From a virus (Duplodnaviria > Heunggongvirae > Uroviricota > Caudoviricetes): a stretch of 64,000 bases of DNA. The translations under genes were made by a program, and so were the position numbers. Positions 271-29,285 of the stretch are shown piece by piece. Each line of letters begins with the position of its first letter. The stretch's first letter is position 1. The stretch is taken from IMG/VR virus record IMGVR_UViG_2585427757_000006, one strand, 5' to 3'. The notes beneath the pieces were generated by a model. That model was not told where the DNA came from and did no database searches. It worked only from the letters and a program-made list of their open reading frames with translations.

Positions 271-605
271 TACCCAACCTCCTTGCAGTCATCGAAAAGG
301 TAGCTGTCGTTCTTCGCGTGAACGCCGTATACATCACCCGATTTGTTGTAAACGAACCTATCTTTACCTACGCCAGATAGTTCGCCGTTACGTTTAGTGA
401 GAAACGGGGAAGACAGGACGCGATCATCGCGTACCACATAAAACTGTTCGCCACGGTCCACAACCATCGCGCCGTAATTAGCTTTAACGGCGTTGCGGAT
501 CAGGCCGTTTTTCGCTTCGACCACAAACATTTCGCACTCATAGACATGTGTGTCCGCAAAGACGGGGAGAGTGAGCAGCGCCAGTACCAGGGCTGTTTTC
601 TTCAT
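270..605 (-). CDS. secreted/periplasmic protein with N-terminal signal peptide (111 aa)
   Basis: N-terminus MKKTALVLALLTLPVFA is a classic Sec signal; two Cys in mature part. Confidence 0.5.
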   Translation of the reverse strand: MKKTALVLALLTLPVFADTHVYECEMFVVEAKNGLIRNAVKANYGAMVVDRGEQFYVVRDDRVLSSPFLTKRNGELSGVGKDRFVYNKSGDVYGVHAKNDSYLFDDCKEVG

Positions 606-781
606 GCCACGACTCCTTTGAAAACGCCTAATGCTGAGTCGAAGACCAGTACTACGGCCAGCGCATTGATCATCACATCATTAACAGGCGCCAGCGCTTT
701 ACGGATTGCCCCTGTGAAGATGCAGTCGAGCACAAAGGCTATCGAGATAATAAGTAACGTGATATCTAATAAAATTTTCAC
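602..781 (-). CDS. possible small hydrophobic protein (59 aa, GTG start), below ORF-track size cutoff
   Basis: Hand-translated frame MKILLDITLLIISIAFVLDCIFTGAIRKALAPVNDVMINALAVVLVFDSALGVFKGVVA; its TGA overlaps the ATG of the downstream secreted-protein gene (ATGA). Confidence 0.25.
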   Translation of the reverse strand: MKILLDITLLIISIAFVLDCIFTGAIRKALAPVNDVMINALAVVLVFDSALGVFKGVVA

Positions 782-820
782 GATAGGTAAATGCTAACTT
801 ATATATTTTTGCTGTAAATA

Positions 821-1096
821 TCACTCAAAAGTGCTGATACCCAAAATGCGCTCAAGATGGGCCGCGTCTTCATCGCTTACCAGCATTGTGTCGTCTACGT
901 ACCAGCAGCTACCGTTGTGCCAACAAACACCGTCATCATCGATATAAATAGAATCCGCATCCATTCCTGTGTATTCAACTAGATTGCGTTCAATTGCCGC
1001 TTGAATTTCTTCATCGTTCAGCCCGTCGCACTTGATCATGAACAACGGGTAAACGTCATAGTCGGTACTAGATGAAATGCGAACCAAAGTCTTCAT
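821..1096 (-). CDS. hypothetical protein (~91 aa; start MKTLVRISS)
   Basis: AAGGAG Shine-Dalgarno 7 nt upstream of the ATG at 1096; ORF-track start at 1159 is probably too long; the recurring dyad motif sits just upstream at 1113-1130. Confidence 0.5.
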   Translation of the reverse strand: MKTLVRISSSTDYDVYPLFMIKCDGLNDEEIQAAIERNLVEYTGMDADSIYIDDDGVCWHNGSCWYVDDTMLVSDEDAAHLERILGISTFE

Positions 1097-1275
1097 GTGT
1101 TTTCTCCTTGTTGGTAAGTACTTATCTATCTTAATGGACGCTATAAGGCGCACAATCATTGTGTTCAGGCTGGTGGAAAGAACTTCTCCAGCGTGTGGTT
1201 GATAGCCTTATCAATGTGCATCAGGTGCCAGACGACCATATCTTTGCTTCCAATGCCGCGAGTGTAGATGAAGTG

Positions 1276-1962
1276 TCAACAAAAACTGGCCACCGAGTTA
1301 GAGTTTTTCCAGTATCGATTTTCCGATTCATTTGGGGGTAATCCACCGTTATATTCGTGCGGTCTTAGTGCGCTGTAATATCCAACGATATAGTCCGTTA
1401 TGGCGTGAGCTGCCTCGCTGAAGCTTACGTAACCCACCACCGGCATCCATTCGTTCTTCAGACTCCTGAAGAAGCGTTCCATTGGGCTGTTATCCCAGCA
1501 GTTTCCGCGCCGGCTCATACTCTGCCTGATCTGGTATCGCCACAATAACTGCCGGAACTGCCTGCTCGTATAATGACTGCCCTGATCGCTGTGGAACATC
1601 ACTCCGCCGGGCTTACCACGGGTTTCCCATGCCATTTCCAGCGATTTCATGGTGAGCCTGCTGTCCGGCGAGAACGACATGGCCCAGCCCACTGGTTTTC
1701 TTGCGAACAGGTCGAGAACAACGGCGAGGTACGCCCAGCGCTTACCCGTCCAGATATAGGTCACATCACCGCACCACACCTGATTTGGCTCGGTCACGGC
1801 GAACTGCCGTTCAAGGTAGTTAGGGATAGCAACATGTTCATGACCACCACGTTTATACCGGTGAGTCGGCTGCTGACAGCTGACCAGCCCCAGCTCCTTG
1901 GCAATTTGACGTCCTTTCAGGCCTGGTGACCCACCTAATAACTCTGAGACTGCCTTCAGCAA
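1276..1962 (-). pseudogene. IS3-family transposase OrfB fragment (DDE/integrase core), 5'-truncated; OrfA missing
   Basis: [12 protein letters not shown]...[16 protein letters not shown]...[11 protein letters not shown] core motifs; N-terminal part of OrfB and all of OrfA absent; abuts hsdR stop at 1977. Confidence 0.8.
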
Positions 1963-1976
1963 ACCATCACTCCTTT

Positions 1977-27984: not shown

Positions 27985-28106
27985 CACAACGTTGAGGCCA
28001 CTACTCCGATTGAATGTTTGCCCAACATGTTACATATCAACGCTCGCCGGTATCTCTGTGAATAGAACCTTAGAATTGATAAAAATGTAATGGCCTCAAC
28101 GTTGTG
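27985..28106. repeat. 16-bp perfect inverted repeat (CACAACGTTGAGGCCA / TGGCCTCAACGTTGTG) enclosing ~90 bp upstream of the tRNA cluster
   Basis: Arms at 27985-28000 and 28091-28106; shares the CGTTGAG core with the 27081 hairpin. Confidence 0.8.
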
Positions 28107-28281
28107 TGCTGGCTAACCATACCAGCCGGGCTACGTCGCCGCTTTTTAACCCAGTATAAACGACATAATTGAACAAAATGACGTAACAGGATGGGCGGTC
28201 AGTGGCTAAGAATCCGGGAGTCATATGGAGTTGAAAATATACCAACCGCCCATTCTGTTCCCTCCTGCGTTCTGCAATCAC
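28096..28281 (-). CDS. hypothetical small protein (61 aa)
   Basis: ORF track only; overlaps one inverted-repeat arm. Confidence 0.2.
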   Translation of the reverse strand: MIAERRREQNGRLVYFQLHMTPGFLATDRPSCYVILFNYVVYTGLKSGDVARLVWLASTQR

Positions 28282-28470
28282 ACTCGCTCAGTGTGTCCCA
28301 TTTCGGTAACGAGGCTGGAAACTGACCTCGCTGGTGTTTGGCTTATTAGGCTACTGCCAGATAGACTTCTTCGTTTGCACTTGTATTTAAGTTCAAACAG
28401 TCGCGTCTCAACGAAAACAAAGTCATCTTATACATAAAAGATAAGTAAGTAAATACTTATCAATATGTTT

Positions 28471-28761
28471 TTATTCGGTTGTGACTTTTTTGATCAAGGC
28501 CACTCTACGACTAGGTGTTCTTGTAATGGTGGCAGTGAATCGTTTCGCTTGGATAGTAATGGTTTCGTTCTCCTTAAGTTGCCCGTAGCGAGTTTCCACC
28601 AGGGTGCCAAGACGCCACAGACCATCATCGATACGTTTATGACTAGCAAATTTAATCAGCAACAGTTTTACGACTAACTGACCTACGTAAAAGGCGAATG
28701 CGACTCCGGCCGCTAAGAAATAGGTGGCCAACCACCATTCCCAAGAAGTTAAATTGCTCAT
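28471..28761 (-). CDS. small membrane protein (96 aa, N-terminal TM helix)
   Basis: WEWWLATYFLAAGVAFAFYVGQLVV hydrophobic N-terminus. Confidence 0.4.
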   Translation of the reverse strand: MSNLTSWEWWLATYFLAAGVAFAFYVGQLVVKLLLIKFASHKRIDDGLWRLGTLVETRYGQLKENETITIQAKRFTATITRTPSRRVALIKKVTTE

Positions 28762-28910
28762 TTTTTCACCTTTGTTTCATGAACTACCCGATACACACGC
28801 TTTCCGATGCACAGTGTTTTGGTTTTAAGTTCCTGCTTAATTAAATCACGACAGATGCCGAAGCCGATAAGGAAGCCACCCATAAAAGCTAATGAGATGT
28901 ATGGAATCAT
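28758..28910 (-). CDS. possible small membrane protein (50 aa; MIPYISLAFMGGFLIGFGIC...), below ORF-track cutoff
   Basis: AGGAG Shine-Dalgarno 8 nt upstream; stop overlaps the start of the downstream gene (ATGA). Confidence 0.3.
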   Translation of the reverse strand: MIPYISLAFMGGFLIGFGICRDLIKQELKTKTLCIGKRVYRVVHETKVKK

Positions 28911-29122
28911 TTTAACACTCCTGATTCTACTAATTGCTGTAGCAATACTTTCCCTTTATCAGTTAACTGGTAGTTGGCCGAACACCACGTTTCAGAAACG
29001 TTTGCAACCAACCCTAAACGCTCTAACTTAGCTCGCGTTTTAGGCTTCCAGTACTCAGGGAACTCCGGCCACTTACTGATTTCATGAAGCGTTTCCTTCT
29101 CCCGTTTACTTAATACGATCAT
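28907..29122 (-). CDS. hypothetical protein (71 aa)
   Basis: ORF track; GGAG upstream of ATG. Confidence 0.4.
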   Translation of the reverse strand: MIVLSKREKETLHEISKWPEFPEYWKPKTRAKLERLGLVANVSETWCSANYQLTDKGKVLLQQLVESGVLK

Positions 29123-29285
29123 CCTTAATCTCCTTCAGGGTGTTGGTTATTTCTACAATGCGATAAATACGACCGCGTCTTTCTATAACACCGCTTTTAA
29201 TGTAGTCATTGATGCAACTGGACATCACCACAATACCTATGAAAAAACCAACTGCTAAAAATGCAATCATCCAGCCGAGCATCAT
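29106..29285 (-). CDS. possible small membrane protein (59 aa; MMLGWMIAFLAVGFFIGIVVM...), below ORF-track cutoff
   Basis: ATG overlaps the ligase TGA stop (ATGA coupling); hydrophobic N-terminus. Confidence 0.3.
   Translation of the reverse strand: MMLGWMIAFLAVGFFIGIVVMSSCINDYIKSGVIERRGRIYRIVEITNTLKEIKDDRIK

Follow-up and report, generated by a model that had tools for sequence, protein, structure and literature searches.

Do very short open reading frames (ORFs), predicted to encode hydrophobic proteins of 50 to 59 amino acids (aa), represent genuine genes, and what might their products contribute to the element that carries them? The question is raised by a window of 64,000 nucleotides (nt), the whole stretch of DNA analyzed here, from the virus record IMGVR_UViG_2585427757_000006 (Caudoviricetes) of the IMG/VR database. 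A sequence-only reading of the window had singled out three such frames, termed here ORF1, ORF2 and ORF3, as membrane-spanning, translationally coupled and overlooked, and had noted that small membrane proteins are often host-takeover or exclusion factors. The best overall explanation, to which we assign a probability of about 0.8, is that the three are conserved genes for membrane proteins, with ORF2 and ORF3 being paralogs at the ligase end of a replication operon and ORF1 heading a separate unit.

Judging by its sequence matches, the window is part of an SSU5/pHCM2-like phage-plasmid of Escherichia coli. Many E. coli plasmids of ~110 kilobases (kb) share 98-99.5% identity with the region at ~28300-30700, which has 760 matching plasmids in PLSDB; it is 98.7% identical to the Escherichia phages CMS-2020a and Cyrano, and 79% identical to Salmonella phage SSU5. 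The matches of region 1-1300 fall in the same SSU5-like group, Cyrano being only ~75% identical to the window around ORF1. Such phage-plasmids are often found in clinical isolates of E. coli, Salmonella, Klebsiella and Yersinia, and hundreds of relatives at 60-99% identity make it feasible to examine the conservation of the three frames.

Coding status of the three frames

The three frames are present as described, with products of 59, 50 and 59 aa, all on the minus strand (Table 1). Their length by itself is not significant, as the six frames of the window contain 76 ORFs of 50-59 aa; it is the conservation of the frames that lifts them above chance. Orthologous frames were taken from 137 IMG/VR loci, yielding 56-82 loci per ORF with pairwise nucleotide divergence of up to 32-36%, and the ratio of nonsynonymous to synonymous substitution (dN/dS) was derived from Nei-Gojobori counts along a minimum spanning tree. 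The length of ORF1 is kept at 59 aa in 54 of 56 loci, that of ORF2 at 50 aa in 72 of 82, and that of ORF3 at 58 or 59 aa in 66 of 69. The dN/dS values are 0.24 for ORF1 (P=2.5e-18), 0.25 for ORF2 (P=7.9e-24) and 0.24 for ORF3 (P=5.5e-35), the binomial P-values treating substitutions along the tree as independent. For reference, neighboring accepted genes show 0.12-0.27 and the ligase 0.08. The other frames over the same segments give ratios of 0.93-1.7, with the exception of the antisense frame aligned by codon position 3. The sequence-only reading had proposed frame conservation among relatives as the informative check, and the outcome is in its favor: the frames are intact and synonymous change is in excess. 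On this substitution pattern, ORF1, ORF2 and ORF3 are genuine protein-coding genes under purifying selection.

The antisense exception deserves attention, since longer ORFs lie opposite two of the three genes, one of 83 aa over ORF1 (546..797, plus strand) and one of 74 aa over ORF2 (28807..29031, plus strand). Over ORF1, 18 of 20 unique sequences keep the antisense frame open, and its ratio of nonsynonymous to synonymous polymorphism (pN/pS) is 0.34, versus 0.24 for the sense frame. Accepted genes show similarly low values, 0.31-0.47, in their own codon-position-3-aligned antisense frame, and the signal is therefore an artefact of codon position 3. The antisense frames over ORF2 and ORF3 are interrupted by stops in 42 of 42 and 32 of 34 sequences, respectively. 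The two long antisense ORFs were accordingly rejected as real genes, being shadows by the tests of frame and selection. A greedy gap-filling test recovered ORF3 only and is uninformative for ORF1 and ORF2, because the shadow ORFs mask both. For annotation practice, short real genes can thus be hidden by longer antisense shadow ORFs in a length-filtered track.

Examination of the junctions shows a conserved arrangement of the kind associated with translational coupling. The ORF1 stop and the g111 start share ATGA in 54 of 55 loci (one GTGA variant included), and the ORF2 stop and the g96 start share it in 74 of 75. The ligase stop and the ORF3 start lie within ATGATG, such that the overlap is ATGA in 43 loci (first ATG) and the 1-nt TGATG in 25 (second ATG); between g71 and ORF2 the overlap is ATGA in 57 loci and 1 nt in 23. 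Of the six junctions, five are 4-nt or 1-nt overlaps, and the remaining one, between ORF3 and g71, is a 17-nt overlap in 67 of 69 loci. Every downstream start is preceded by a conserved GGAG-type Shine-Dalgarno site inside the upstream gene. The earlier claim that each frame overlaps its adjacent gene by ATGA is therefore right in that each has at least one such junction, and needs amending in that ORF1 is separated from its upstream neighbor g91 by a 39-nt gap, with no overlap, and in that the ORF3/g71 overlap is not ATGA. Coupled translation is predicted from this arrangement.

All three genes are already catalogued, as hypothetical proteins. The Prokaryotic Genome Annotation Pipeline (PGAP) of RefSeq lists ORF1 as WP_023135695.1, ORF2 as WP_165371261.1 and ORF3 as WP_085949093.1. 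The SSU5 equivalents are SSU5_066, SSU5_047 and SSU5_045, respectively, those in Cyrano are CYRAN_60 (ORF1) and CYRAN_38 (ORF2), and the coordinates of the coding sequences (CDSs) in the records of close relatives are identical. Matches to the PHROG families extend over the entire proteins: phrog_2535 for ORF1 (expectation value E=1.3e-33, residues 1-59/59), phrog_6302 for ORF2 (E=1.4e-36, residues 1-50/50) and phrog_4381 for ORF3 (E=1.1e-39, residues 1-59/59). These database entries are the same genes as ours and name no function. The sole record without an ORF3 CDS is that of Cyrano (OV696614.1), which has a gap between the ligase CYRAN_36 and CYRAN_37 (locus positions 1107-1283). The contention that such genes are systematically under-annotated does not hold for these three, since RefSeq, SSU5 and PHROG contain them all; they are indeed absent from the ORF track used in the sequence-only reading, owing to its 60-aa floor and not to a gap in public annotation. 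The details added here, namely the paralogy of ORF2 and ORF3, their GxxxG and tail motifs, the constant place of the family behind the ligase, and the macrophage-induced, possibly leaderless ORF1 operon, are modest leads, not discoveries. Two of the leads merit attention: a ligase-coupled family of predicted small membrane proteins, and a macrophage-induced three-gene unit headed by ORF1.

Table 1. Position of the three short genes and of the features around them in the window
Feature	Coordinates	Strand	Length	Remarks
ORF1	602..781	-	59 aa	GTG start in window
ORF2	28758..28910	-	50 aa	ATG start
ORF3	29106..29285	-	59 aa	ATG start; PGAP uses the second ATG (58 aa, 29106..29282)
DNA ligase	29282..30604	-	440 aa	Stop overlaps ORF3 start
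g71	28907..29122	-	71 aa	AAGGAG Shine-Dalgarno site inside ORF3; phrog_4054
g96	28471..28761	-	96 aa	N-terminally anchored membrane protein; last operon gene before the transfer RNA (tRNA) genes; phrog_4507
tRNA genes Ser-TGA, Thr-TGT, Tyr-GTA, Asn-GTT	27161-27718	-		Beyond a ~750-nt non-coding stretch downstream of g96
g70	58..270	-	70 aa	Last gene of the ORF1 operon; 1-nt overlap with g111; phrog_804
g111	270..605	-	111 aa	N-terminal signal-peptide-like segment; AGGAG Shine-Dalgarno site inside ORF1 3' end; phrog_2077
Sigma-70-like promoter	791..818	-		TTTACA-N16-TAGCAT; ends 9 nt before ORF1 start codon; no Shine-Dalgarno site after it
g91	821..1096	-		Upstream neighbor of ORF1 across the 39-nt promoter-bearing gap; not co-induced with ORF1
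rve, IS3-family integrase-core fragment	1276..1962	-		
HsdR, type I restriction-modification	1977..4994	-		
DUF4268 protein, type I restriction-modification	5009..6172	-		
HsdS, type I restriction-modification	6182..7462	-		
HsdM, type I restriction-modification	7462..9927	-		
RecA-like gene	10610..11683			

Two kinds of predicted small membrane protein

Hydropathy analysis (Kyte-Doolittle, 19-residue window, threshold 1.6) bears out the earlier prediction that all three products span the membrane, since each contains a hydrophobic segment above 1.6. The maxima are 2.57 for ORF1, which has a second segment above the threshold, 1.84 for ORF2 and 2.55 for ORF3. AlphaFold2 models, of low-to-moderate confidence, place a helix-loop-helix hairpin in ORF1 and one long helix in ORF3.

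ORF2 and ORF3 share 31% identity over 45 residues by BLASTP (E=3e-5), their profiles align by hhalign with a probability of 90.8% (E=1.2e-6), and a divergent homolog in locus L147 matches both. By these comparisons the two proteins are paralogs of one family, whereas the databases keep them as separate families. A kinship of g96 to this family was considered and rejected (hhalign probability <2%). The positions that are invariant across both paralog groups are G13 and G17, which form a GxxxG motif in the predicted transmembrane (TM) helix and around which the other TM positions vary, and R39, Y41, R42 and T47 in the tail. The tail reads R-G-R-I-Y-R-I-V in ORF3 and G-K-R-V-Y-R-V-V-H-E-T in ORF2, and nowhere in the proteins is constraint stronger than in the family motif, G/R-x-R-[VIL]-Y-R-[VI]-[VI]-x-x-T, whose dN/dS is 0.07 for ORF2 and 0.12 for ORF3. 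The anchor of ORF2 is looser (0.38), as is the end of ORF3 (0.59), where the final 12 codons accommodate the Shine-Dalgarno site and start codon of g71. Both tails are basic, that of ORF2 very much so, with a net charge of ~+7 in ORF2 as counted from the sequence, and an N-out/C-in topology is predicted on this basis by the positive-inside rule. The predicted picture is thus one of small single-pass inner-membrane proteins, composed of an N-terminal TM helix and a short basic tail.

Word-indexed searches and an exhaustive HMMER search place these families on contigs of ~100-112 kb of Enterobacterales only, the host genera being Escherichia, Salmonella, Citrobacter, Enterobacter, Klebsiella, Cronobacter, Raoultella and Yersinia. 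Among 1.84 billion representatives, the exhaustive HMMER search returned only 24 family hits, which confines the family to SSU5-like elements; the proteins are called hypothetical by every source.

The position of the ORF2/ORF3 family is as characteristic as its sequence. In SSU5, the cluster closes the operon that runs from DnaB and primase to the ligase, directly before a tRNA gene. The most divergent lineages contain a single family member right after the ligase, overlapping the ligase stop, and its partner is a g71 homolog in locus L145 and a g96-family protein in loci L149 and L150 (clear) and L147 (weak). Wherever a DNA ligase gene occurs in the loci compared, the gene directly behind it is a family member, situated at the 3' end of the replication operon. 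Each family member in turn contains, at its own 3' end, the start of the following gene together with the Shine-Dalgarno site of that gene, which is g71 for ORF3-type members and a g96-family gene for ORF2-type members, and the E. coli and Salmonella order ORF3-g71-ORF2-g96 resembles a tandem of two such pairs. In L149 (GCA_045138415.1, 4785-5001), as compared with L150, the ligase is reduced to a ~215-nt 3' remnant, and the small TM gene and the g96 homolog are intact.

Published expression data are available for Cyrano in strain LF82, in the form of strand-resolved RNA sequencing (RNA-seq) that was re-analyzed in the LF82 study (S1 Table of PMC9928086), where values are log2(fpkm+5), fpkm standing for fragments per kilobase per million, and 2.32 means zero reads. 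The ORF2 orthologue CYRAN_38 has values of 2.32/2.32 in lysogeny broth (LB) and 3.5-6.0 in other conditions; it tracks the ligase (2.45-4.3), lies at or below the background of the element, and is outside the list of morons given in that paper (PMC9928086). The ORF2 orthologue, like the ligase, is silent in the lysogen, and it is presumably a gene of the lytic cycle. The table has no entry for ORF3, whose CDS is missing from the Cyrano record.

ORF1 is of a different kind. Its two hydrophobic helices include a conserved Asp/Asn within the predicted membrane span, and it is modeled as a two-helix hairpin membrane protein unrelated to ORF2 and ORF3. It heads a three-gene unit, ORF1-g111-g70, behind a promoter of its own; the last gene is Cra-like and is labeled 'P1 Cra / Cre-associated protein' in SSU5 and Cyrano. 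The promoter is the only promoter-like site in region 1-1300. Its hexamers are conserved in 52 of 56 loci, with the 9-nt distance to the start codon fixed and with no Shine-Dalgarno site in between, and inspection by eye found no LexA box (CTG-N10-CAG) there.

The expression of the ORF1 unit in Cyrano differs from that of ORF2. CYRAN_60, which we confirmed as the ORF1 orthologue, has 2.32/2.32 in LB and rises in macrophages to 6.9/7.1 at 1 h and 8.8/8.4 at 6 h (PMC9928086). CYRAN_61 (g111) and CYRAN_62 (g70) follow the same course and reach 8.3-9.0 at 6 h, whereas CYRAN_59 (g91) stays at 4.8-5.1 and the RecA-like gene is at ~4 in macrophages (PMC9928086). The step in transcript level between CYRAN_59 and CYRAN_60 coincides with the promoter. 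The lytic cycle of Cyrano was reported as not induced in macrophages (PMC9928086).

With 9 nt between the end of the -10 hexamer and the ORF1 start codon, and no Shine-Dalgarno site in that interval, the transcript should begin at the start codon or within a few nt of it. We therefore regard it as possible, though far from established, that the ORF1 messenger RNA (mRNA) would be leaderless or nearly so. Leaderless mRNAs occur in elements of E. coli, as exemplified by lambda cI transcribed from PRM and by tetR of Tn1721. ORF1 resembles these in the distance of its start from a conserved -10 and in the lack of a Shine-Dalgarno site; it differs in its GTG start codon in the window (shared by two related loci, with ATG in the others), and its transcription start is deduced from the promoter.

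Possible functions and competing explanations

For ORF2 and ORF3, we tentatively propose that the proteins would insert N-out/C-in and may pair through the GxxxG motif, that their synthesis would keep a constant proportion to that of the coupled partners when the element replicates lytically or after induction, and that they might serve as membrane anchors or adaptors, holding g71, g96 or DNA at the inner membrane; any one such mechanism is a possibility which we would not yet call probable. Membrane-anchored organizers of replication have a precedent in p1 and p16.7 of phage phi29, which anchor the replication machinery to the membrane; p16.7 is held there by its N-terminus, and its cytoplasmic portion makes contact with DNA and the terminal protein (PMC4974454). 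The likeness consists in ORF2 and ORF3 being small, predicted to be membrane-anchored and encoded among early or replication genes. The differences are considerable: a Pfam scan (E<=1) gave chance hits only and thus no sequence similarity to ORF2 or ORF3, phi29 uses protein-primed replication and infects a Gram-positive host, and at 50-59 aa, with only ~30 residues in the tail, ORF2 and ORF3 are far shorter. For ORF1, a similarly tentative proposal is that, together with the exported g111, it would form an accessory module that belongs to the plasmid state and is expressed under certain conditions. A fuller proposal, in which ORF1-g111-g70 would be a 'moron-like', macrophage-induced and (near-)leaderless operon that acts independently of the lytic cycle and alters the envelope or fitness of the lysogen, and in which ORF2 and ORF3 would form a GxxxG-dimerizing tether for the lytic replication module, is speculative and unlikely to hold in full.

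Several observations weigh against the reading of three conserved membrane-protein genes with the roles outlined above. The independence of substitutions along the minimum spanning tree is an assumption of the conservation test. The hydrophobic segment of ORF2 is marginal and glycine-rich, and the AlphaFold2 models have mean predicted local distance difference test (pLDDT) scores of 72 and 66, with 53-66 in the tails. The positive-inside rule alone would explain the basic tails, which are thus no proof of nucleic-acid binding, and the persistence of the small gene beside a ligase remnant in L149 means that its function is not strictly ligase-dependent. The RNA-seq data derive from Cyrano, with its ~75% identity around ORF1, and consist of gene-level counts, not transcription start sites. 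The promoter scan taken alone is not significant (1 site found versus 1.7 expected). Finally, GTG is a poor start codon on leaderless mRNAs, so that ORF1, if its mRNA is leaderless, may be weakly translated in the element of the window.

The most serious competitor follows from the suggestion in the sequence-only reading, namely that the three proteins are superinfection-exclusion or host-takeover factors of the type of T4 Imm and Sp or lambda Kil. T4 Imm and Sp are small inner-membrane superinfection-exclusion proteins made from early phage transcripts, and the predicted small inner-membrane proteins of the present element, located in an early or replication-type operon, resemble them in this respect. 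The narrow, lineage-specific distribution of the families is typical of accessory or conflict genes, and expression of the ORF1 operon in the lysogen under stress is compatible with a function exerted by the prophage. However, Imm and Sp have no homology to ORF1, ORF2 or ORF3, and comparison with Pfam, NCBIfam, PADLOC, PDB and PHROG revealed no similarity to any known exclusion, defense or takeover family. The substitution ratios of ~0.24, and of 0.07-0.12 in the tail motif, bear no arms-race signature, and a post-ligase position that does not change between lineages speaks for a core lytic function rather than a swappable accessory gene. The ORF2 orthologue, with zero reads in the LB lysogen and ligase-like levels elsewhere, is silent where a prophage-mediated exclusion gene should act, which makes classical exclusion of this kind unlikely for the ORF2/ORF3 family; an early role in lytic growth is still conceivable. 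Taken over all three genes, we consider exclusion or takeover somewhat unlikely.

Less is to be said for the view that the three are lysis timers resembling holins or antiholins, or peptides resembling type I toxins. The two hydrophobic helices of ORF1, with their conserved intramembrane Asp/Asn, would suit a two-TM class II holin, and g96 has a weak match to the holin family phrog_2359 (E=0.027). Yet ORF1, ORF2 and ORF3 themselves have no significant holin or toxin match, and no endolysin or spanin is adjacent, the neighbors (g111, g70 and g91 included) being without lysozyme, amidase or lysis domains. The downstream genes have normal Shine-Dalgarno sites and coupling, no antisense RNA promoter was found in 27800-31500, and a lethal holin is hard to reconcile with an ORF1 operon that is high in macrophages without reported lytic induction. 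We consider this explanation quite improbable. That the frames are untranslated chance ORFs or opposite-strand shadows, as the many frames of comparable length and the open antisense frame of ORF1 might suggest, is hardly tenable, given that dN/dS is lowest in the annotated frames, which are near-universally intact at up to 36% nucleotide divergence, that the junctions and Shine-Dalgarno sites are conserved, and that independent annotation pipelines call the same genes.

The conserved membrane-protein reading received no further detail from homology. Sequence searches of Pfam, NCBIfam, PADLOC and PDB with ORF1, ORF2, ORF3 and their neighbors gave sub-threshold chance matches only. Among these, a PADLOC match of ORF1 to typeIV_Cas5 (E=0.0013, 16 bits) reflects hydrophobic composition and is not credible. 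A keyword search of a paper on defense by a Klebsiella SSU5-like plasmid (PMC8969562) gave no lead on the three genes. In the case of g71, the matches are weak and of winged-helix type only.

Neighboring genes and cargo

Some of the genes around the two clusters carry labels or show features worth recording. The g96 gene is labeled 'C-type natriuretic protein' in the SSU5 RefSeq record and in many plasmid records, with no support from Pfam or NCBIfam, and the name looks like a propagated annotation artefact. At the site equivalent to the tRNA genes of the window, the SSU5 record has tRNA-Asn only. CYRAN_40 and CYRAN_43, which lie downstream of g96, are morons with strong expression, exceeding background 15-fold and 723-fold (PMC9928086). 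In loci L145, L149 and L150, Pfam matches to the Tad2-like and Acb2/Tad1 hairpin anti-defense families are located a few kb downstream of the module of ligase and small TM gene.

On the side of ORF1, CYRAN_56, labeled a 'membrane protein' and only ~66 aa long, and CYRAN_57, which is stomatin-like, are likewise induced and reach ~7.3-7.7 at 6 h in macrophages, compared to 2.3-4.3 in LB (PMC9928086). The block of the window that comprises the integrase-core fragment and a complete type I restriction-modification cargo (1276-9927) lies between the g91/ORF1 cluster and the RecA-like gene, and SSU5 and Cyrano have other genes at this position.

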